Positions 4,501 through 21,470 are shown, numbered from the stretch's first letter. The stretch is DNA of 24,222 nt from a virus (IMGVR_UViG_3300027798_000222:1-24222); one strand, 5' to 3'. Notes: generated by a model from the sequence alone, not told the origin. Made by a program: numbers and translations.

Positions 4501-7170
4501 ATGGCGACGCTCCGAAAAATCACGCTCAACTGGGAAATCCGCACGGGCGCAATCACCTGCGACACCGGCTACATAAAGCGGCAGGAGCTTTGCGACGTTG
4601 ACCTATACGTGACGGTGGACGGCACAGCCTACGCGCTCGACACGTCATGGGCGCTGAACCTTTCCGTCAAGCCCGCGCTGCTCGGCGACAACGCCGCACT
4701 GGTCGCAGTGACGACATGGACAGCATCGGCTACCACCGGGCTTTACCAAGCGACCGCGCAGACGATAGGCGGAACCGCGCTCGACACCTACCTTGCGGCG
4801 AACAACTCCGACACCACAGACGACGAGGGCAACAAGCTCGTTGACCTCGACGTGTATTACACCGTCAGCATGGCGATGAAGGCTAAGTCCGACACCGTGA
4901 CGGTGATTTGCAAGCCGGACGTGGGGCGGACGGATGACACCGTGCCGGCCACCATCGTCGCTCGCAACGATTTCCTCGTCAGCAACGGCACCGGCCTGCT
5001 CGTCAACGTCGCAGCGGGCTACGCAGCCAACGGCGCATTCGTGGCAGCGCAGGCTTCGCTGGCAATCACCAACGCGACGAACTACATCGAGATTACAGCG
5101 GCAGGCGTGGCATCGGTGAACACCACGGCATTCACGGCTGGCAGCTACCCGCTGGCAACGGTGGTGGCGAGCGCCGGCGCAATCACGGCCAACACCGACT
5201 TGCGCGCGTGGATTACGCCGAAGCCTGCAACAGGAGGCGGCACCGTCACCAGCGTCGCGCAGAGCTTCACAGGCGGGCTAATCAGCGTCGCAGGCTCGCC
5301 CATCACGGCATCCGGCACGCTCGCGCTAACCGTCGCAGGGACAAGCGGCGGCATCCCCTACTTTTCCAGCGGCACGACATGGGCGACCTCGGCGGCACTT
5401 GCGGCGAGCGCCTTGGTTGTCGGCGGCGGGGCAGGGGCGGCGCCGGCCAGCGTGACGACCGGCGCGAACGTGCTCACCGCACTCGGCGTCGCAGTGGGCA
5501 CAGACGGTGCATTCATTACGCGCGGCGGCAATGCGGGCACGCCGTCCGCAATCGTCCTCACGAACGCCAGCGGCACCGCATCCATCAACATCAACGGCAC
5601 GGTGGGCGCGACGACGCCAAGCACGGTTGCGGGCACGACGGGGACGTTTAGCGGCGCACTCGAAGGAGCCTCTGTGTCTGCGACCGGAGGATTGAATTTG
5701 GTTGGCAACATCACGCCATCGGCTTCATTTCCGTTTTTGTCTGGATATGGATTATTTGGTGGCGTCGGCACCGGCGTGAAATTTATCAGTGACAGCGTTT
5801 ATACCGGAGTCGGCAACAAAGTGACCGGGGCCGGGGAGGTGTCGCTGCTCCTTTTCTCCAATAATACGGCGCAGGTAGAGCTAACCCATGCGGGCGTTCT
5901 GGCGTGCGGTGCGGTGACAGCCACCACGCTGACGGCAAGCGCGACCACCAGCCTCCTCCTCGGCACCGCAGGCAGCGCCGTGGGCAACGTGGGCTTTCGC
6001 AACGCCACCTCGGGCACCACGACGCTTGCGCCTGCGACTGGCGCGCTCGGCACGCAGACCGTGACGCTGCCGCTAACTGGCACGCTGGCAATCAGCAGCG
6101 GCGCGCAGACCTTTACCGGCGTGCAAAGCATGACCTCGCCGGACATCACCACCAGCATCACCACGCCGAGCACGACGTTTGCGCTGGTGAATGCGACGGC
6201 GACCACGGTGAACTTCGCGGGCGCGGCTACGACTATCGCAATGGGCGCAGCGACCGGCACCACGACGCTCGGAAACAATCTAGCTCTGACCACTGCCGGA
6301 GTGGCAAGTAACTCGGCAGTGCTGGCATCCGGTGCGCTCTACACGGGCGGCACCGGCACCACGACATTCCCTGCCATCCTCCACCAGCCGACCGGAGCTA
6401 CGGCGGCGACAGCATGGAGCAGCGGTGCAAATAGTGGCACGGCTTTCGGCTGCAATGAGGCGACGGGCTTTTTGGGTAACTTCGCGGACTATCGCATCGC
6501 GGGAGTCAGGCACTTCGCGCTAGGCACGGACGGCAGCGGAAACTCGCGCCTTTATTGGGGCTCTGGTGGCCAATACATCCAAATTGTATCCTCTACCTTC
6601 TCCTGTTCTGGAGGCTTTTCGGTAGGCGGCGGGACGCTCGCGACTACCGGTGGCAACGGCATTACTTCATCCGGCACCCTCGCCGTGACCGGAGCCACGT
6701 CACTCGGCGGCGCAGCGGCAGCGGCAACAACCGCCACACGGCTCACCAAGCTAACCAGCAGCATCGCGGACAACACAGCAACGGCTTGCCTCACCGTCAC
6801 CATCCCGAACGCCGCGCACGCTGCTTCGCTCCGCGTCCGTTTGCTCGGAAGACTCGGCGCGGGCGGGGCAATCGGAGCGGATGAAGCAACCGGCGCAGTC
6901 ACCTATGACTTCGCCATCGCCCGCACTGCTGGCGTGAACGCTGTCGTCAACGCATCCCCGGCCTTTGGCAGCGCGGCCTCCAGCGTGGCGGGTGCGACTA
7001 CCGCAACGGTTACGGCAGCAGCATCCGCCATCAGCGGTGCGGTCGGTGCGAGCAATACTTTCACCGTCAACGTCACCATCGCCAAGGGTGGCGGCAGCAG
7101 CGCAAACCACACCTGCACTATTGTCGCCGAAGTGCTCAACGCCAACGTCACCGGAATCTCAATCGCCTAA
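4501..7170 (+). CDS. Tail fibre / receptor-binding protein
   Basis: 889 aa G/A/T/S-rich, GGGTVTSV...SPITASGTL fibre-type motifs. Confidence 0.7.
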   Translation: MATLRKITLNWEIRTGAITCDTGYIKRQELCDVDLYVTVDGTAYALDTSWALNLSVKPALLGDNAALVAVTTWTASATTGLYQATAQTIGGTALDTYLAANNSDTTDDEGNKLVDLDVYYTVSMAMKAKSDTVTVICKPDVGRTDDTVPATIVARNDFLVSNGTGLLVNVAAGYAANGAFVAAQASLAITNATNYIEITAAGVASVNTTAFTAGSYPLATVVASAGAITANTDLRAWITPKPATGGGTVTSVAQSFTGGLISVAGSPITASGTLALTVAGTSGGIPYFSSGTTWATSAALAASALVVGGGAGAAPASVTTGANVLTALGVAVGTDGAFITRGGNAGTPSAIVLTNASGTASININGTVGATTPSTVAGTTGTFSGALEGASVSATGGLNLVGNITPSASFPFLSGYGLFGGVGTGVKFISDSVYTGVGNKVTGAGEVSLLLFSNNTAQVELTHAGVLACGAVTATTLTASATTSLLLGTAGSAVGNVGFRNATSGTTTLAPATGALGTQTVTLPLTGTLAISSGAQTFTGVQSMTSPDITTSITTPSTTFALVNATATTVNFAGAATTIAMGAATGTTTLGNNLALTTAGVASNSAVLASGALYTGGTGTTTFPAILHQPTGATAATAWSSGANSGTAFGCNEATGFLGNFADYRIAGVRHFALGTDGSGNSRLYWGSGGQYIQIVSSTFSCSGGFSVGGGTLATTGGNGITSSGTLAVTGATSLGGAAAAATTATRLTKLTSSIADNTATACLTVTIPNAAHAASLRVRLLGRLGAGGAIGADEATGAVTYDFAIARTAGVNAVVNASPAFGSAASSVAGATTATVTAAASAISGAVGASNTFTVNVTIAKGGGSSANHTCTIVAEVLNANVTGISIA

Positions 7171-9011: not shown

Positions 9012-9388
9012 AAAAGCAACTCATCATCCTCGCCATCGTCGCCACGCTCATCAACTCTCTCGCCGGATGCGCGGGCACCAACTGGCCCGCCGTGCGCCGG
9101 GACGCCGGGGCCATCCTCGGCAAGATAGCCGTGGCACAGCTTCGCACGCTCGTCGCGGGCAACCTCGGCAGTGACTACGGGCACGCCGCAGCCGCCGCCG
9201 CATGGGGCGCGGTGGACGTGGCCGACATTGGCCAGCTTGTGCGCAGCGCAACTGGGCATCCCGTGGCCGCACGCGCCGTCGAGACCGTCGCGGCGGAGGC
9301 GCTGGCGAAAGGCAGCGTGAGCAAGGGCACCGTGATTAACGCGGTGGCGACGGCACTCAGCGAGGCGGCGTTTGCCGGTGGGAAGTGA
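9008..9388 (+). CDS. Lipoprotein (spanin-like position)
   Basis: Signal peptide MKKQLIILAIVATLINS followed by lipobox LAGC. Confidence 0.55.
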   Translation: MKKQLIILAIVATLINSLAGCAGTNWPAVRRDAGAILGKIAVAQLRTLVAGNLGSDYGHAAAAAAWGAVDVADIGQLVRSATGHPVAARAVETVAAEALAKGSVSKGTVINAVATALSEAAFAGGK

Positions 9389-10026
9389 ACCTCGACGCTG
9401 ACAAGGTGCGGCAGTTCCAGCGCGCCGTGGGAGCAAATCCCGACGGCATTTTCGGCCTTGCGACGCTCAACCTTGGGCTGGCGTGGATCGCCGCGCACGG
9501 CGGGACGGAAGCGCCAGTGCCTGCCACGCCAGCACAGCCGCCCGCGGGCCTCGCAGACCCGCGCAGCGAGGCGACGATTGCGACGCTCCATACGCAGGTG
9601 CAGCAGCCTTTCCGCGACCTGCTACGTTCCATCAACGCCGCCGTCGCGCCGAGCGTGGGCAGGTGGATATCCGGCTACCGTGGTGAAAAGGAGCAAAACG
9701 CGCTGTATGCCAAGGGCCGCACGGCACCGGGGCCGCGCGTCACGTCCGCGCGCTGGCCTACATCGTCGCACAATGGCGGCGGCGGCACGACCGGCTTCGC
9801 GTGCGACATCGGCTTTTTCACCACGGGCGGCACCTACATTGACGAGGGGCCGCAATACGACATCGCCGGGAAGCTCGCGCGCGCCGCTGGCTTCAACTGG
9901 GGTGCCGACTTCGGTGACCGCCCGCACATCTGCCTGCGTCCACCAACCCTGCGCGCGGTGGGCGAGACGGCTTTCATCAACGCGCTGATTTACAGGGTGA
10001 ACAACGGGCTTGCCGTTTGGCCGTGA
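9385..10026 (+). CDS. Endolysin, M15 family (L-Ala-D-Glu peptidase-like) with N-terminal peptidoglycan-binding motif
   Basis: FQRAVGANPDGIFG motif; SGYR..EQNALYAKGRT, SSH, ACDI, WGADF.DRPH metallopeptidase motifs. Confidence 0.85.
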   Translation: MNLDADKVRQFQRAVGANPDGIFGLATLNLGLAWIAAHGGTEAPVPATPAQPPAGLADPRSEATIATLHTQVQQPFRDLLRSINAAVAPSVGRWISGYRGEKEQNALYAKGRTAPGPRVTSARWPTSSHNGGGGTTGFACDIGFFTTGGTYIDEGPQYDIAGKLARAAGFNWGADFGDRPHICLRPPTLRAVGETAFINALIYRVNNGLAVWP

Positions 10027-10888: not shown

Positions 10889-11038
10889 GATGTTCTCTGA
10901 ATTGTGCGCGGCAGGACTCGAACCTGCAAGCCCGCCATGAGATGCAAACCCATTGGGCAGCACGTTTCGCATGGTTGCATACCAGCTACTATGCACCGCG
11001 TTTGCCAATTTCGCCACACGCACAATTCAAAGAACATC
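10889..11038 (-). ncRNA. tRNA-Leu-like RNA (core 10903-11023) with extended acceptor helix and aberrant anticodon and variable arms
   Basis: Acceptor GTGCGTG/CGCGCAC, D arm TGGCGAAATTGGCAAACGC, T arm GCAGGTTCGAGTCCTGC, no CCA. Confidence 0.7.
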
Positions 11039-11281: not shown

Positions 11282-11497
11282 TTATTCCGGCGCGTGGCCT
11301 GCCTTACGCCATTGATGCGGCGACACGGGCCGCACAGCGCGCGAGCATGTGCGGCATTTCTTCGTCCGCTTGTCAGGCACGCCAGTCGCGCCGTGGGCTG
11401 CGTAGCCGCATGGGATGATGAGCATGGGGCCGCTCATGCCCGTCACGACGTGTGCCTTTTCTCCCGCTCGAAATCGTAGCCAGTTTGGTGTGCTCAT
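11282..11497 (-). CDS. Small hypothetical protein with CxxC
   Basis: MSTPNWLRFR... 71 aa, divergent from the array. Confidence 0.4.
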   Translation of the reverse strand: MSTPNWLRFRAGEKAHVVTGMSGPMLIIPCGYAAHGATGVPDKRTKKCRTCSRAVRPVSPHQWRKAGHAPE

Positions 11498-11557
11498 GGG
11501 CCGAGCACGTTGCCGCGCATCGCCCGCGATGGCAAGGCAAAAAAGTTTTAGATTTAT

Positions 11558-11590
11558 TTTGACACGGGGCGGAGTTGCGTTTATCGGTGC
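11558..11590 (+). promoter_or_regulatory. Candidate promoter driving the cassette array
   Basis: TTGACA at 11559-11564 after an AT-rich tract; -10 is weak. Confidence 0.4.
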
Positions 11591-11608
11591 GTAGGAAAAA
11601 CCCACAAA

Positions 11609-11941
11609 ATGATAACATGCCCCTGCTGTAATGCCCGATTGGATGTAGATCTACCGCCCGACCGAGAACAGGCAAATAACCTCGTGCCAGAAACGGCGCA
11701 ACCGGCAGAGTCCGGTTCGCTGTGCAGCGACTGGGTAGCGGAACTGGGAGCCGTGCAAACTCAACTCGAAGACGCATGGACCGCGCTCTGCAAGCAGGAC
11801 TGGGGCGCGGCCACGCAGAATGTCTTCGATGTCAGGGCGAGCGTGACGAAGCTCGTGGAATCAGTGCGGGGCCATTCCGCTACCGCGGGCGATGAGCGAC
11901 AGCCTCCGCGCCCTGTGCGCCAAATTGGAGGACAGCCATGA
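11609..11941 (+). CDS. Cassette 1 hypothetical protein
   Basis: 110 aa, CPCC N-terminus; cassette inverted repeat GGTAGCGGAA 11734-11743 / TTCCGCTACC 11875-11884. Confidence 0.65.
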   Translation: MITCPCCNARLDVDLPPDREQANNLVPETAQPAESGSLCSDWVAELGAVQTQLEDAWTALCKQDWGAATQNVFDVRASVTKLVESVRGHSATAGDERQPPRPVRQIGGQP

Positions 11942-11975
11942 ACGCGGAGGATGTTCGCTCCATGCCATGTTCTGC
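11878..11975 (-). repeat. attC site (cassette 2), 98 bp
   Basis: Minus: GCAGAAC ATGGC ATGGAGCG AACATCCTCCGCG...CGCGGAGGCTGT CGCTCAT CGCCCGC GGTAGCG. Confidence 0.8.
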
Positions 11976-12171
11976 GTCGGCGCCGAACCGGAAGTGTATT
12001 TATTGTAAAGGGAAATATGAGCGAATCCAGCGGTGCCTCGTCTGCATGATCCACTTCGGCACTGGAGTCTGGACTCCGGCCACAAAGAGGACGCGCAAGA
12101 AACGCCAGCCGACGCAGAACGGGGAAGTCTCCGACACCGCCCAAAGCGGCGCATCCAATACGAGCCGATGA
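11938..12171 (+). CDS. Cassette 2 hypothetical Zn-finger-like protein
   Basis: CIYC...CLVC; ATGA coupling; inverted repeat 11969-11981 / 12108-12120 (13 bp). Confidence 0.6.
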   Translation: MNAEDVRSMPCSASAPNRKCIYCKGKYERIQRCLVCMIHFGTGVWTPATKRTRKKRQPTQNGEVSDTAQSGASNTSR

Positions 12172-12296
12172 GCCTACACTGCACACAATGCGATCGGAAC
12201 ACGGACTGCGGCATCTGCCCGCGCTGCGCAAGTAACCTCGCGCCCGAACCCGCGCGTCCAGACAAGGCGGTGTTCGCGAGCACTGACTGGGTAGGT
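12114..12296 (-). repeat. attC site (cassette 3), 183 bp
   Basis: Minus: ACCTACC CAGTC AGTGCTCG CGAACACCGCC...GGCGGTGTCGGAGACT TCCCC GTTCTGC. Confidence 0.7.
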
Positions 12297-12470
12297 GCGC
12301 TGGCGACACGCTGGGAGCGGAGACTGGCTGAGAGCAGCGGGACAACACGCGACGCTCTTGACTGTGGGCGAATACTCCAACTCAGAGAGTGCTGCGATGA
12401 ACTCCGCGCGGAGATGGAAAGCGCACCTACCGATGAAGCTCACCCGCTGACGGGGGACAAAACACAATGA
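12168..12470 (+). CDS. Cassette 3 hypothetical protein
   Basis: Start MSLHCTQC..CPRC at ATGA overlap; inverted repeat 12290-12301 / 12420-12431 (12 bp). Confidence 0.65.
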   Translation: MSLHCTQCDRNTDCGICPRCASNLAPEPARPDKAVFASTDWVGALATRWERRLAESSGTTRDALDCGRILQLRECCDELRAEMESAPTDEAHPLTGDKTQ

Positions 12471-12551
12471 ACACGCCCGCACTTCCAAATCAAAGCGGTG
12501 CTCACGCTGACAGCCATGACCGGCAGTTAGTGGTGCAGCGCCTTGTTCGGC
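12425..12551 (-). repeat. attC site (cassette 4), 127 bp
   Basis: Minus: GCCGAAC AAGGC GCTGCACC...GGTGAGC TTCATC GGTAGGT. Confidence 0.8.
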
Positions 12552-12721
12552 TATTGACTCTTGTGGAGCGGACATTCGTGGGCGACAAAGCAATCTCCGC
12601 GTGGGATAAGAATGAGCGTGCGATGCGGAAGAAATACGGCGTGCTGGCGTGGGGCACTTATGTCCCGATGCCAGCGGGGGAGCACCACTGGACAATGACC
12701 GTGGAGCGGACACTGAATTAG
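12467..12721 (+). CDS. Cassette 4 hypothetical protein
   Basis: 84 aa, ATGA coupling; inverted repeat 12545-12553 / 12719-12727. Confidence 0.6.
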   Translation: MNTPALPNQSGAHADSHDRQLVVQRLVRLLTLVERTFVGDKAISAWDKNERAMRKKYGVLAWGTYVPMPAGEHHWTMTVERTLN

Positions 12722-12825
12722 CCGAACGTCGTCTTCAGCGACGGCGCGAACGTAAAAAAACCGTGAATATGGAACAACCTATCGAACAACCGAAACCCGC
12801 CGTTCGCTCCAGTAAGCTGGTAGAT
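12721..12825 (-). repeat. attC site (cassette 5), 105 bp
   Basis: Minus: ATCTACC AGCTT ACTGGAGC GAACGGCG...CGCCGTC GCTGAAG ACGAC GTTCGGC. Confidence 0.7.
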
Positions 12826-13014
12826 GACTGGGAGCGGCGCTACGAAATAGCACACAGGGCCGAGATAAAGCTCCGCGATGACATAACCGCACTGAGGCGC
12901 GAACTGACCATCGTGAGCAGAGAGCGGGCGAGACTGTATCGCGAATACAGAGCCGCAAAGTCATCTACCGATGAAGCTCATGGACTGGCTGACAAAAACC
13001 TCTCGAAACCCTGA
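12763..13014 (+). CDS. Cassette 5 coiled-coil hypothetical protein
   Basis: GTG 12763 or ATG 12769 start; inverted repeat 12819-12829 / 12959-12969 (11 bp). Confidence 0.6.
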   Translation: MNMEQPIEQPKPAVRSSKLVDDWERRYEIAHRAEIKLRDDITALRRELTIVSRERARLYREYRAAKSSTDEAHGLADKNLSKP

Positions 13015-13082
13015 AACCCCTATGACAATCCCAACCGTAGAAAACACACATGAAGCCAGTTCCATGCAGCGCCTGGTTAGAG
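12963..13082 (-). repeat. attC site (cassette 6), 120 bp
   Basis: Minus: CTCTAAC CAGGC GCTGCATG GAACTGGCT...AGCCAGTC CATGAGC TTCATC GGTAGAT; two extrahelical bases. Confidence 0.9.
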
Positions 13083-13471
13083 GCTTCGTTCGTAGAATCT
13101 TTCGGTGGGTAGATGTTGCCATCCGTGAGCGCGACCAACTCGCCCAATACGCTCGTGAGCTAGAGTCCTTGCGGCGGCGGCGGGCGAGAGCGGCGCACCT
13201 CGCAGCACAGGCTGAGAAGGCAGCGGCCAACATCCGAAAGCGTGGACGCTCAGGATACATGGACCTCGAAAGCCGAAGCTACAAACGCTGGCGCAAATGC
13301 CGCGACAATTCCGAAGACGCAATCCGGCGGTGGCGGGAGGCGGGTAACGCGGCGAGCGAAGAACTCGCGCGCAAATTGGAAAGCGCCAAAGCCTCTAACG
13401 CAGAAGTGAGCGACCGCCGCGCTCACGCTCCAGAAAACAAAACAGGCGCGAACGGCGGTTCGCTCTACTGA
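13022..13471 (+). CDS. Cassette 6 basic helical hypothetical protein
   Basis: Likely start MTIPTVEN; inverted repeat 13076-13086 / 13389-13399 (11 bp). Confidence 0.6.
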   Translation: MTIPTVENTHEASSMQRLVRGFVRRIFRWVDVAIRERDQLAQYARELESLRRRRARAAHLAAQAEKAAANIRKRGRSGYMDLESRSYKRWRKCRDNSEDAIRRWREAGNAASEELARKLESAKASNAEVSDRRAHAPENKTGANGGSLY

Positions 13472-13481
13472 CTGGTTAGCC
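13393..13481 (-). repeat. attC site (cassette 7), 89 bp
   Basis: Minus: GGCTAAC CAGTC AGTAGAGC GAACCGCCG...CGGCGGTC GCTCACT TCTGC GTTAGAG. Confidence 0.85.
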
Positions 13482-13484
13482 ATT

Positions 13485-13706
13485 ATGAACACCGAAAGAG
13501 ACAACTGGAAGGACGTGACGGCGGAGGATGCGACCGATTCGGAACTGCGCCTCGTCCACAAAATCAGCGGCCCAAAGCCCGACTGGATGGACGCCGCGAA
13601 CTGGCGCAACAACATGAGGGCGTGCGCGAAGGACATCCGCCAGCACGTCGCGCTAATGGCTAACGATGGAACTCACGGACAGACCACTCACAACCCGACC
13701 ACATGA
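13485..13706 (+). CDS. Cassette 7 hypothetical protein
   Basis: 73 aa; inverted repeat 13475-13485 / 13654-13664 (11 bp). Confidence 0.6.
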   Translation: MNTERDNWKDVTAEDATDSELRLVHKISGPKPDWMDAANWRNNMRACAKDIRQHVALMANDGTHGQTTHNPTT

Positions 13707-13843
13707 GCACACCACTACGACACGGCTGCGCAGATCATATCTCAAATCCACAAGAGGACTGCGAATACTGCAAGGCAAGTAACCGCGTGCTTGAAGCGGC
13801 GCGTTCGAGTGAGGGGGCTGTTACGTGCAGTGACTTGGCAGCG
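13658..13843 (-). repeat. attC site (cassette 8), 186 bp, R'' core degenerate (GCC)
   Basis: Minus: CGCTGCC AAGTC ACTGCACG TAACAG...CTGTC CGTGAGT TCCATC GTTAGCC. Confidence 0.75.
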
Positions 13844-13987
13844 GAACTGGAAGCCGCGCTAGTGCGGCTGGGAGAGCTGAGACAAGGCACGTCCGAAGTA
13901 TGGGGGTGGGATGAAGAATGGACGTGTGTGCAAACTGCGCTGAGTAACGCGCTGGATCGGGAACGGAGCCGTTCCGCTACCGACTAA
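13703..13987 (+). CDS. Cassette 8 hypothetical protein (related to cassette 1)
   Basis: 94 aa, ATGA coupling; inverted repeat 13837-13847 / 13971-13981 (10 of 11 match). Confidence 0.6.
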   Translation: MSTPLRHGCADHISNPQEDCEYCKASNRVLEAARSSEGAVTCSDLAAELEAALVRLGELRQGTSEVWGWDEEWTCVQTALSNALDRERSRSATD

Positions 13988-14100
13988 GCTCACCTACCCG
14001 CTCCGGCGGAAACGGTGGAGCGCACGAAAACCAATCTATGAAAACAAACACATCGAACGCAGAACAACAGGAGCGGGTTAGGTGCAGCGCCTGGTTAGGG
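13975..14100 (-). repeat. attC site (cassette 9), 126 bp
   Basis: Minus: CCCTAAC CAGGC GCTGCACC TAACCCGCTCC...GGAGCGGGTA GGTGAGC TTAGTC GGTAGCG; textbook 5/6-nt spacers and two extrahelical bases. Confidence 0.92.
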
Positions 14101-14238
14101 CGCTTCGTCCGCACTCACGCATGGGCATTTGCACTTGGAGCGTCACTCGGAGTAATCGGGGTGAATTGCTACGAGTGGCGATACTGGGCCGTCTTCGTGC
14201 CGACACTAATCGGCGTGCTCCTGCGCCCTAACAAGTAA
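14038..14238 (+). CDS. Cassette 9 small membrane protein (2 hydrophobic segments)
   Basis: 66 aa; inverted repeat 14094-14103 / 14223-14232 (10 bp). Confidence 0.6.
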   Translation: MKTNTSNAEQQERVRCSAWLGRFVRTHAWAFALGASLGVIGVNCYEWRYWAVFVPTLIGVLLRPNK

Positions 14239-14244
14239 TTATAC
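14226..14244 (-). other. attI-like recombination site
   Basis: Minus: GTATAAT TACTT GTTAGGG, an L(7)-N5-R(7) simple site with no attC arm, at the end of the array. Confidence 0.55.
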
Positions 14245-14265
14245 GACTCAACTCAATACCGAAAA

Positions 14266-14517
14266 ATGAGCAAGTGGAGCACAATCAAAAACATACGCCG
14301 CGCGAGTCTAAAAGCTAGAGAGCGCGTGAACATCCGATGGAACCGCGTGCGCGCGGAGCAGGCAAAGATGGACGCAGCGCCGATGCCGTCACGCCGCATC
14401 GTGGAGCGGCACGTCGTCATCCGCGATGAGTGCCGCGTGCTCGAGGCTGTGTTTTACGCGGACGACCGGCCATGCGATATTCGCCGGAAGCTACGGACGC
14501 TGAAAGGCGTTTGGTAG
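14266..14517 (+). CDS. Basic hypothetical protein
   Basis: 83 aa, Arg-rich, directly after the array. Confidence 0.55.
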   Translation: MSKWSTIKNIRRASLKARERVNIRWNRVRAEQAKMDAAPMPSRRIVERHVVIRDECRVLEAVFYADDRPCDIRRKLRTLKGVW

Positions 14518-14519
14518 AG

Positions 14520-15011
14520 TCAATCGAGAAACGTAATCGTCACGCCGGGCGCTGCCTTGTCATAGCTGCGCGAGGACTGCACGGGCCACAGTAGCGTATC
14601 GTCCGCTACTACGCCAGCCCGTTCAAGCGCGTGCCATAGCGCATCGCAAATTGCCGAGAAGTCGCGCCGCCGTCTGTCCTCGGCAACGTAGTCAATCCGC
14701 ACGTTGCACGGTACCGCGATTGGCTCGCCGTGGAACTGCGTCTTGATTTGCCGGATGGCCTCCGCGCGCCAGTCGGCGAATGCTTTCTTCGGGAAGCTCT
14801 TACCCGTCTTAGTTCGCCCCATGTTATTCTTGCCGCCTCGCACCTGCCCTGTCAGCCGCAATACAAGCCTCGGCACGTCCGCACCGCGCGGCGCAACCGA
14901 AGCCGCTGGCGGGGCGGTGGCGAGCGCAGGCGGGCACTTCGGGCACGCGCGGCCAATGTAGTGTTCGCCGCAGCGATGGCACAGGCGGGCGTTGGCAGGC
15001 AGGGTAGTCAT
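14520..15011 (-). CDS. rusA: RusA-like Holliday junction resolvase with N-terminal Zn finger
   Basis: KNN...DRRRRDFSAICDALWHALERAGVVADD motif; start MTTLPAN at ATGA overlap. Confidence 0.75.
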   Translation of the reverse strand: MTTLPANARLCHRCGEHYIGRACPKCPPALATAPPAASVAPRGADVPRLVLRLTGQVRGGKNNMGRTKTGKSFPKKAFADWRAEAIRQIKTQFHGEPIAVPCNVRIDYVAEDRRRRDFSAICDALWHALERAGVVADDTLLWPVQSSRSYDKAAPGVTITFLD

Positions 15012-21261: not shown

Positions 21262-21311
21262 CCACGACCCAGAACCACCCCGCCCCGCCACGCCCGCGCA
21301 TGAGCACGCGC

Positions 21312-21470
21312 TTGCAACGGGCGCGGGGATGCGGTAGAGAGAAGGTGCCGATTGAACCCCGGCAAGAAAGACGAACAGATGCAGACCAAACCCACATTTT
21401 CAATTCTCCACGTTGCCGACGCAGTTCGTCGCGGGTTCACGGTGGCGTGGAGAATTGAGGAGGTAGAAAA
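21312..21470 (+). promoter_or_regulatory. Promoter and structured leader upstream of the replication initiator
   Basis: TTGCAA-N17-TAGAGA; 13-bp perfect stem 21400-21412 / 21446-21458 abutting GAGGAGG. Confidence 0.55.

Follow-up and report, generated by a model that had tools for sequence, protein, structure and literature searches.

An integron-type cassette array with an attI-like end site, antisense genes and no detected integrase in a phage contig

The window analysed here, a stretch of 24,222 nt from the freshwater phage contig IMGVR_UViG_3300027798_000222, contains nine consecutive small ORFs on the plus strand and, between them, eight imperfect palindromes of 98, 183, 127, 105, 120, 89, 186 and 126 bp which on the minus strand read as complete attC sites (C1 to C8; 89-186 bp), together with one half-site (C0) and an attI-like site at 14226-14244. 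The first unit carries ORF1 (11609..11941, 110 aa, no family) and has only the right half of its own attC, C0 (11721..11740, minus strand; R'', spacer and L'' only); it is probably immobile, and in the near-identical contig L381 a different unit stands in place of ORF1. ORF2 (11938..12171, 77 aa) starts in the C1 loop and overlaps ORF1 in an ATGA; ORF3 (12168..12470, 100 aa) is the gene of cassette 3, which belongs to the 11 bp inverted-repeat class and has a GGT core; ORF4 (12467..12721, 84 aa) stops 6 nt short of the crossover in the common frame. ORF5 (12769..13014, 81 aa) and ORF6 (13022..13471, 149 aa) start in the loops of C4 and C5, respectively, the latter running through most of C6, while ORF7 (13485..13706, 73 aa) is the sole ORF that starts just past its attC. 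ORF8 (13703..13987, 94 aa) is followed by ORF9 (14038..14238, 66 aa, hydrophobic), whose cassette adjoins the attI-like site and takes its stop codon from the TAA of that site. The module is closed by a conserved plus-strand gene of no known family (14266..14517, 83 aa), which is not a cassette. Neither the nine ORFs nor this anchor gene could be assigned to a family in PHROGs or Pfam. The cassettes of ORF1 and ORF8 (cassettes 1 and 8) are paralogous and have almost identical ends; the cassette limits in the window were set by hand. A second, independent assembly differs from the window array at only 1 of 2780 bases, and an assembly artefact as the source of the array was therefore ruled out. 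Rfam gave no attC match on the window and only a weak tRNA-like match outside the array, and ARAGORN found no tRNA.

The succession of nine small ORFs with palindromes of 89-186 bp between them had been noted in a first-pass annotation made from the sequence alone, and ORF calls and site anatomy agree with it, except that the complete sites number eight and not nine, ORF1 having only the right half-site. That annotation, in describing an array without an integrase, undersold the platform, which also comprises the attI-like site closing the array, a promoter-like element at its other end and genes of reversed polarity; that the ORFs are antisense to the attC sites and overlap them was likewise absent from the first reading.

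On the minus strand each site reads R'', spacer, L'' with an extra base at position 4, arm, loop, L', spacer and R'. Per-site parsing thereby bears out the proposed architecture of R'', a 5-nt spacer, L'' with an extra base, a second extra A, loop, L' and R', and the example site quoted for it corresponds exactly to C8 (13975-14100). The extra base at L'' position 4 is present in 8/8 sites and a further extra A is evident at position 11 in six of them (C1 and C4-C8), with further bulges in C2 and C3; attC aadA7 has its extra bases at the same positions, 4 and 11 (Qi et al. 2023, Table S3, PMC9892861). The first spacer measures 4 nt in C1 and 5 nt in the remaining seven sites, the second 5-6 nt, and the L box matches at 7/7 positions in five sites, at 6/7 in two and at only 4/7 in C4. 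Individually, the sites are C1 (11878..11975, crossover C at 11884), C2 (12114..12296, three extra bases, crossover C at 12120), C3 (12425..12551, bulged stem, crossover C at 12431), C4 (12721..12825, crossover C at 12727), C5 (12963..13082, crossover C at 12969), C6 (13393..13481, crossover C at 13399), C7 (13658..13843, R'' core decayed to GCC, crossover C at 13664) and C8 (crossover C at 13981); C1, C3, C5 and C8 have GGT as R' core. The minimum-energy structure of C3 is not the attC stem.

A strict scanner found five of the eight sites in the region, compared with a mean of 0.1 and a maximum of 1 in 60 dinucleotide shuffles, and gave two matches outside the array. A covariance model of bacterial attC sites, a check of the kind that the first-pass annotation had proposed, matched 6/8 window sites at their exact ends on the minus strand, four at E <= 4e-5 (C8 2e-8, C6 3e-6, C5 5e-6, C3 4e-5) and two weakly (C4 0.039, C1 0.29), the model being not fully independent in that its 16 bacterial seed sites were found with motifs from C3, C5 and C8. 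C6 is the fairer match, as the seed motifs came from the other three sites. C2 and C7 were missed by the model; C2 recurs as the same site on the same cassette in the relative L208, and sites homologous to C7 occur in L011, L407 and L409. Early pattern scans for attC returned mostly chance matches (an attC call over the motif at 6/146 loci, one of them doubtful, and at 5/120 in another scan), and one further pattern search, near background, was discarded.

The ends of each cassette body form an inverted repeat of 10-13 nt if one mismatch is allowed; the repeat is exact over 9-13 nt in 8/9 cassettes, cassette 8 having a mismatch in the core. The earlier claim that each end repeat matches itself and not its neighbour holds in so far as a body end in the window pairs over only 1-5 nt with the core of its neighbour, and fails for the paralogues 1 and 8. 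The strict AAC/GTT core is departed from by four of the nine window cassettes, which end in ACC (GGT). From 79 units kept in the window and its relatives we obtained 63 distinct cassette bodies, after setting aside the window array in its three copies, the initial unit of L404, all units scoring <13 for L plus arm, and lone ends whose repeats were <10 nt. Their cores are GTT/AAC in 42, GGT/ACC in 13, GAT/ATC in 6 and mismatched in 2, where the matching of cores in relatives is partly built in by a parser that needed an inverted repeat of >= 8 nt and cores AAC, ACC, ATC or TAC. In these cassettes the G is fixed, position 2 free and position 3 nearly fixed, the pattern measured for the core tolerance of IntI1, which accepts variants at position 2 (PMC2811028). 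Since the non-GTT cores are variants that IntI1 tolerates, they lower membership in the strict consensus but not the likely function. Twenty GGT calls among 208 bacterial sites included register shifts and were discarded.

The predicted attI-like site (14226..14244, minus strand) consists of a 7-nt L box (GTATAAT), a 5-nt spacer and a G↓TT core with the crossover C at 14232, is not a palindrome, and has the form of a simple attI site, with a degenerate L box, a 5-nt spacer, G↓TT and cassettes attached. It is present in 47/56 loci, where 28 distinct cassette ends are joined to it at one C, and it supplies an in-frame TAA in 47/47. Its closest likeness in a host is a single Verrucomicrobiota site, L616, of the same form and with TAAT before G↓TT; three others differ.

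All nine ORFs are antisense to their attC sites, that is, they lie on the bottom strand, and 8/9 start upstream of or inside the right arm of their own site. The canonical integron layout, with a top-strand ORF upstream of attC read from Pc at the attI side, is not what is found here. When the core triplet is read as a codon, the resulting crossover frame is open in 53/63 bodies; the other two plus frames are open in 16 and 5, the three minus frames in 25, 17 and 15. In bacterial arrays the longest ORF lies on the top strand in 85/98 cassettes and the same crossover frame is open in only 7/98. Tails in the crossover frame stop within the arm or loop in 51/52 cases and as ATGA overlapping the next start in 40/52, against one and six in the other two frames; these 52 tails are not independent, 16 coming from one attC family. 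Either the incoming attC arm or the attI-like site provides the stop codon. Top-strand (inverting) recombination was ruled out as an explanation of the reversed genes because all attC sites face one way and the junctions lie at R'; the gene is therefore inverted relative to its own site. An earlier orientation test at the level of sites was noisy (81 bacterial sites: 33 top, 7 bottom, 41 unclear; 13 viral sites mixed) and was superseded by the cassette-level test.

Opposite the attI-like site, at the other end of the array, lies a promoter-like element (11539..11590, plus strand) with an A-tract, TTGACA at 11559-11564 and, after 17 nt, a weak -10 hexamer. It is kept among the relatives in 14 distinct versions. 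A consensus promoter scan did not call this element and gave no promoter matches in the array; terminators in the array number 5, against a shuffled mean of 4.4, and thus show no excess. The RNA run X19 covered only 7/30 bins, too few to read expression from. Among the cassette proteins of the relatives, 14/49 are methyltransferases.

That no tyrosine recombinase is encoded in the window, as the first-pass annotation had stated, was borne out: PF00589 is missing from the 24-kb window and from nine related records, including a 41-kb relative that spans terminase to DnaB, although all of these are incomplete (the window at 44%, the relatives at 10-76%). A tblastn search with an IntI gave no match at E <= 1 in 69 related loci and the window. 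With eight sites in 2.2 kb and no intI in the 24-kb contig, the array falls under the definition of a CALIN, a cluster of at least two attC sites lacking an integrase nearby, and the place beside attI where an integron has intI is held by the 83-aa gene. With respect to the source of the sites, an attC pattern derived from the relatives fell in Verrucomicrobiota in 66/80 among the matches listed (by record title), and 4/5 Verrucomicrobiota genomes encode a TIGR02249 protein above cut-off. By its sequence pattern, the attC type is Verrucomicrobiota-like, and the host is probably a bacterium of this phylum. A host search by the helicase gene returned MAGs of mixed taxa, and a DnaB atlas search returned viral clusters only, naming no host. 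IntI relatives occur at 43 viral loci, and the tested ones pass TIGR02249 (6/6); the cassettes next to them that could be scored are all inverted (11/11), only 4/11 have the fixed frame open, and the attI sites of these phages have their TAAT one base nearer to the core than the attI-like site described here.

Since no record spans the region between the point where the replication genes end and the terminase, the phage might encode an IntI or a different tyrosine recombinase of its own within the unassembled part of its genome, which would make the same cassette system a complete, if split, phage integron, and the phages in which IntI adjoins inverted cassettes provide a precedent. In those phages, however, intI directly adjoins attI, whereas at 47 loci of the present lineage the 83-aa gene takes that place. 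Given also that PF00589 is missing from the ten incomplete records and that IntI gave no tblastn match in the 69 loci and the window, and given the lack of the whole module in 4/8 relatives, we consider a split integron unlikely.

Comparison of related contigs demonstrated that the same genomic slot is filled with other cassettes in the relatives (56 loci), whose arrays differ in which cassettes they carry and in what order, the breakpoints falling on the crossover base, as the first-pass annotation had predicted for a shufflable platform; that reading is supported. Cassette 3 is the seventh from the attI-like site in the window and the second in L208, with similarity beginning and ending at the crossover C on both sides, and it is found again with other neighbours in L208, L414 and L415. 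Cassette 7 has another downstream neighbour in L378 and in run X6, and a homologue of cassette 8 in L011 stands among other neighbours and carries GAT/ATC cores. Thus, cassettes 3, 7 and 8 move as units among varied neighbours, as expected of gene cassettes, and change them at the crossover C, with only 1-2 bases in common past the junction. A blastn search of the module against 50,697 GenBank phage records gave no match.

It might be argued that the array is a relic, captured by an IntI long ago and now fixed and decaying, the differences between relatives being inherited from old events. The half-site C0, the degenerate C4 and C3 and the changed core of C7 would fit such a history, as would cassettes 2-9, which are unchanged in two other assemblies, and the assembled contigs of four runs, in which no circle junctions were found, rare forms being dropped by assemblies. 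Against this stand bodies that are 98-100% identical next to different neighbours (the L414/L415 copy of cassette 3 at 97.9%, the L378 end of cassette 7 at 100% over 88 nt), the presence of cassette 7 with two downstream neighbours within one run, and a 99.9% identical contig whose first unit is new and attached at a secondary AAC↓G, so that a relic appears quite improbable. Very improbable is that the palindromes are look-alike linkers which swap genes by homologous recombination without an integrase, like the PeSLs of T4-type phages for which shuffling and mini-circles are described in the available text of PMC2839356: the first unit does seem to switch within a common loop motif and not at the core (L391, L415), but cassettes 3, 7 and 8 and the 28 end-site joins change at one C with 1-2 bases in common, the sites differ in sequence while keeping the extra-base geometry, the end site is non-palindromic, and the repeated promoter and terminator of a PeSL are not found here.

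We therefore consider it highly probable that the locus is an integron array with an attI-like site, no detected integrase and antisense genes, on which IntI likely acts in trans from the host or a co-infecting phage. In the proposed mechanism, IntI would act on the bottom strand in its folded form, which here is the coding strand, and cut it at the conserved C, and cassettes would be excised and inserted by the enzyme so supplied, the excised circles re-entering mainly at the attI-like site. A single promoter at the opposite end may transcribe the array, and because of its position the newest cassette would be the last in the operon, while the stop-start overlap might allow translation of any cassette behind any other. 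A quick turnover of accessory early genes, including DNA methyltransferases that may protect the phage from host restriction, is the likely purpose. Somewhat better than evenly balanced, in our estimate, is the broader proposal that phages run their own mirror-image branch of integrons, an integrase-free attI platform that parasitises the IntI of a host or helper phage and carries self-coupling cassettes. If true, each attC would terminate the upstream gene in one frame and restart translation on its own gene, any shuffle would yield an expressed operon with new protein tails, and phages would hold a cassette pool separate from the bacterial one as well as a natural, population-wide case of recombination sites written into coding sequence.

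Integrons are regarded as bacterial devices. The array described here provides direct genomic evidence that site-specific shuffling feeds the mosaicism of phage accessory genes, including anti-restriction methyltransferases, one phage lineage maintaining a dedicated slot whose content varies actively, with an attI-like site of its own and a repertoire of no fewer than 63 different cassettes. With its reversed polarity the array departs from the rule that cassettes are oriented for expression from Pc, and ideas on the origin of cassettes are constrained by a transcript that contains the recombinogenic strand and by a start codon within attC. The widespread non-GTT cores agree with biochemical data published earlier, and they suggest that such arrays are undercounted by tools relying on a consensus.

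Our literature search found no paper on an inverted, self-coupling cassette layout; several known systems share single features with it. The PeSLs of T4-type phages (Arbiol et al. 2010, PMC2839356, in its accessible part) similarly form a hyperplastic region in which small accessory genes are swapped at repeated elements, with modular shuffling through circular intermediates; PeSLs, however, are promoter-terminator repeats that recombine with each other, whereas here the exchange occurs at a single base in attC- and attI-type sites. According to the portion of Nivina et al. 2020 at hand (PMC7439510), synthetic attC sites embedded in coding sequence keep IntI1 activity and likewise lay an attC structure over an open reading frame, but these were engineered, while the present array is natural, has both arms coding and alters C-terminal tails by shuffling. 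In class 1 integrons, ORF-11 at attI1 is a short frame within a recombination site that passes ribosomes to a cassette gene (PMC8876359, as far as its consulted sections go), comparable to the coupling that we propose from the sequence; ORF-11 serves only the first cassette from attI1, whereas here a stop-start junction lies in each attC arm and the coupling therefore travels with the cassette.

Phage CALINs have been published by Qi et al. 2023 (PMC9892861), the available text of which reports 17 in 10,705 genomes and the recombination with IntI1 of five out of six phage attC sites tested; the published phage cases are few and were interpreted as captured fragments. Like the present array they are made of cassettes bounded by attC sites, lie in phage genomes that lack intI and include methyltransferase cargo, but in the available tables they have 2-4 sites instead of eight plus an attI-like site, and the tested CALIN phage TJE1 has the usual polarity, unlike the array here. 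On our re-reading, the CALIN phage ctTUS972 (MW202573) is inverted and has two CDS that share the frame in which they end, on which the available text of that paper makes no remark; nor does that text include cassette exchange among relatives, an attI without intI in a lytic-type phage or a frame rule. The sedentary chromosomal integrons of Verrucomicrobiota and related phyla (IntI TIGR02249) share with the array the attC type and geometry, the extended inverted repeats at the cassette ends and, in L616, the simple attI with TAAT before its core. Bacterial integrons have their genes on the top strand before attC and the promoter at the attI side, whereas in the phage array bottom-strand genes start inside attC, the promoter-like element lies at the far end, no intI was found, the loops reach up to about 130 nt and are protein-coding, and 21/63 cassettes do without a GTT/AAC core pair.

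Nine consecutive ORFs of 66-149 aa, all on the plus strand, occupy positions 11609-14238. The first-pass annotation regarded them as separated by attC-like palindromes throughout; the ORFs are confirmed, and the palindromes amount to eight complete sites on the minus strand, C1 (11878-11975), C2 (12114-12296), C3 (12425-12551), C4 (12721-12825), C5 (12963-13082), C6 (13393-13481), C7 (13658-13843) and C8 (13975-14100), together with a half-site, C0 (11721-11740). Read on the minus strand, each site consists of R'', a spacer, an 8-nt L'', a loop, L', a spacer and R'. An extra base is present at position 4 of L'' in every site and another, an A, at position 11 in most, the same positions as in the attC of aadA7 listed in Table S3 of Qi et al. 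2023 (PMC9892861). A strict scanner found five of the eight sites; in 60 shuffled sequences it averaged 0.1 hits and never exceeded one. A covariance model built from 16 bacterial attC sites matched six sites with exact ends (C8, C6, C5 and C3 at E 2e-8 to 4e-5, C4 at E 0.039 and C1 at E 0.29) and missed the two longest, C2 and C7. As the members of this model had been retrieved with motifs taken from C3, C5 and C8, C6 represents the fairest match. Minimum-energy folding of the bottom strand recovered the L stem in most of the sites but failed to do so in C3. The proposed pairing of each cassette body with its own end was also borne out, as the inverted repeats measure 10-13 nt with the own end and 1-5 nt with that of the neighbour. 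A second, independent assembly differed at a single position in 2780 bases. Two further scanner matches, at 5001-5166 (plus strand) and 21273-21339 (minus strand), reside in or between ordinary genes; the covariance model gave no match with the ends of either, and both are probably due to chance.

All nine genes are encoded on the bottom strand of their attC, a point absent from the earlier annotation. The start codons of seven ORFs lie within the loop of one of the complete sites, that of ORF1 upstream of C0 and that of ORF7 just past C6. The two ends of the array were likewise missing from that annotation. At its left end the array has only half a site, located behind a promoter-like element that is kept in 14 versions among the relatives and was not called by a consensus promoter scanner. 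The right end is formed by a short non-attC, attI-like site at 14226-14244, which reads GTATAAT-5 nt-G|TT on the minus strand and adjoins an 83-aa gene without family assignment. This anchor gene (14266-14517) occupies the usual position of intI; every relative with an array has it, in one of two sequence types, and its product could be a cofactor of the cassette system. The longest attC loops (11609-11740, 12168-12296 and 13703-13843) encode N-terminal CxxC motifs common to many cassettes of the family; thus, a leader that is likely zinc-binding appears to move with the attC onto unrelated bodies.

Eight related loci were retrieved with the RusA gene as query. Four of them lack promoter and anchor gene, two of these joining 11497 straight to 14529, and the other four retain the right-hand frame of the slot with different cassettes inside. 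The anchor gene as query yielded 56 metagenome loci, including the window contig itself, and 47 of these possess the end site, which is joined at one C by 28 distinct 15-nt cassette ends (AAC in 19, ACC in five, ATC in three and TAC in one). Among the remaining nine loci, one has A in place of this C, contig ends truncate the site in two, and the sequence at this position differs in six. As the first-pass annotation had anticipated, relatives differ in cassette content and order, with breakpoints at the crossover C. Cassette 3, seventh from the end site in the window, is second in locus L208, where it aligns over all 311 nt (85%) and ends at the crossover on both sides; its body recurs at 97.9% in L414/L415 with a third downstream neighbour. 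Cassette 7 is followed by a different attC in L378 and in sequencing run X6, and L011 contains a cassette 8 homologue that lies between different neighbours and is bounded at either end by GAT/ATC cores. L381 is 99.9% identical across cassettes 2-9 and carries a different first unit; at 150-520 of this locus, the new unit is joined within the C1 loop, at a secondary AAC|G, and the ORF2 start codon is lost, which looks like an off-target IntI event. Four loci (L386, L387, L389 and L390) have a TAC-core cassette end at the attI-like site, for which the parser found no upstream inverted repeat. In L426, two successive cassettes share both attC family and end sequence, which suggests that related cassettes were inserted repeatedly. 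No circle junction was found in the assembled contigs of four runs. Five loci (L160, L162, L164, L166 and L459) share the early region and slot with the window and differ in their head and tail modules; therefore, the slot has spread over mosaic genomes.

The window comprises about 44% of a genome and is carried wholly or partly by 20 of the 21 runs listed (at least half of it by 18), nearly all from freshwater and five possibly from the source sample. Besides the array it encodes tail and lysis genes, including an endolysin (9385-10026). A RusA-like resolvase gene is located on the minus strand, and a replication module includes genes for a helicase, a DNA methyltransferase and DnaB. The promoter-like element, array, attI-like site and anchor gene constitute an optional island (11497-14529) between two minus-strand genes; in L009, L010 and run X6 the island is absent and its flanks are joined with only two letters between them. 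A weak Rfam tRNA match at 10903-11023 on the minus strand (38 bits, 121 nt against a 71-position model), where ARAGORN called no tRNA, is possibly an interrupted or decayed tRNA.

The genes also obey a frame rule. The 79 parsed units were reduced to 63 distinct bodies sharing less than 80% identity, of which the window contributes nine. In 53 of the 63, no stop codon interrupts the plus frame that reads the core triplet as a codon; the other two plus frames are open in 16 and 5, and the three minus frames in 25, 17 and 15. The core-triplet frame is used by 53 of 54 ORFs reading through the crossover and by all nine ORFs of the window. Among 52 cassettes with a full site, which are not independent because 16 share one attC family, the left arm or loop closes this frame with a stop codon in 51, and the stop is part of ATGA in 40, versus 1 and 6 for the other frames. 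The end site supplies an in-frame TAA in 47/47 loci. In control arrays, mostly from Verrucomicrobiota, the longest ORF is on the top strand in 85 of 98 cassettes and this bottom-strand frame is free of stops in seven; three more bacterial arrays concur in 9/9 intervals between clear sites.

In agreement with the earlier annotation, the window contains no tyrosine recombinase: the PF00589 profile is absent from it and from nine related records (10-76% complete, one spanning 41 kb from terminase to DnaB). Similarly, tblastn with an IntI returned nothing at E <= 1 from the window and 69 related loci, the gap before the terminase being unbridged. The cores of the 63 bodies, partly shaped by the parser, are GTT/AAC (42), GGT/ACC (13), GAT/ATC (6) or mismatched (2), so that G is fixed and position 2 varies; according to Frumerie et al. 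(PMC2811028), a match is required at the first base only, and position 2 tolerates change best. An attC pattern derived from the relatives was found at 134 loci; of the 80 listed, 66 belong to Verrucomicrobiota, and four of five such genomes encode an IntI above the TIGR02249 cut-off. One Verrucomicrobiota attI (L616) has the form of the window end site, TAAT-5 nt-G|TT, and three others from this phylum differ; the Shewanella attI quoted by Qi (PMC9892861) shares the form. IntI relatives are also encoded in 43 viral loci, and six of six tested pass the TIGR02249 cut-off. Ten of these loci have at least two attC sites. The viral contigs L623, L631, L635, L637, L642, L645, L651, L656, L658 and L662, with IntI relatives and attC arrays, are complete phage integrons with reversed genes. 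All 11 scorable cassettes beside viral IntI are inverted, but only four keep the fixed frame, and TAAT is one base nearer to the core in their attI than in the window end site. Core tolerance, the Verrucomicrobiota attC and IntI and the viral IntI loci thus make an IntI from the host or a helper phage plausible, and we consider it quite probable that such an enzyme acts on the array in trans.

Site anatomy, single-base exchange, polarity and frame are established by these data. By inference, IntI would fold and cleave the bottom strand, which is the coding strand in this array, and circles would be inserted either at the attI-like site or at another attC. The far promoter would transcribe the array, leaving the newest cassette last before the anchor gene, and the stop-start overlap would keep every arrangement translated. 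The first unit, having lost half its site, seems to change by recombination inside a common loop motif. Among 49 cargo proteins of at least 75 aa in relatives are 14 methyltransferases (nine N6/N4, four MT-A70 and one C5) and one GNAT; judged by established function, the methyltransferases may protect from restriction. PHROGs and Pfam gave no family for the nine cassette proteins of the window.

Shuffling in phages has been published for PeSL (PMC2839356), secondary attG sites are the subject of a preprint (10.1101/2022.09.11.507474), and IntegronFinder is described in PMC4889954. Cassette orientation is considered essential for expression from Pc (PMC5027507), translational coupling is described for ORF-11 at attI1 (PMC8876359), and coding attC sites are reported only as synthetic designs (PMC7439510). 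In literature that largely excluded subscription journals, we found nothing on inverted, frame-fixed phage cassettes or on a phage attI platform without intI. The array of the window is a real cassette array and, by definition, a CALIN; it is not a canonical integron, as the gene polarity is reversed and no intI adjoins the attI-like site. Qi et al. 2023 (PMC9892861) found 17 CALINs among 10,705 phage genomes, and five of the six sites that they assayed were active with IntI1. Of their arrays, ctTUS972, on whose orientation the text of that paper makes no remark, is by our reading inverted like that of the window, whereas TJE1 has the usual polarity.
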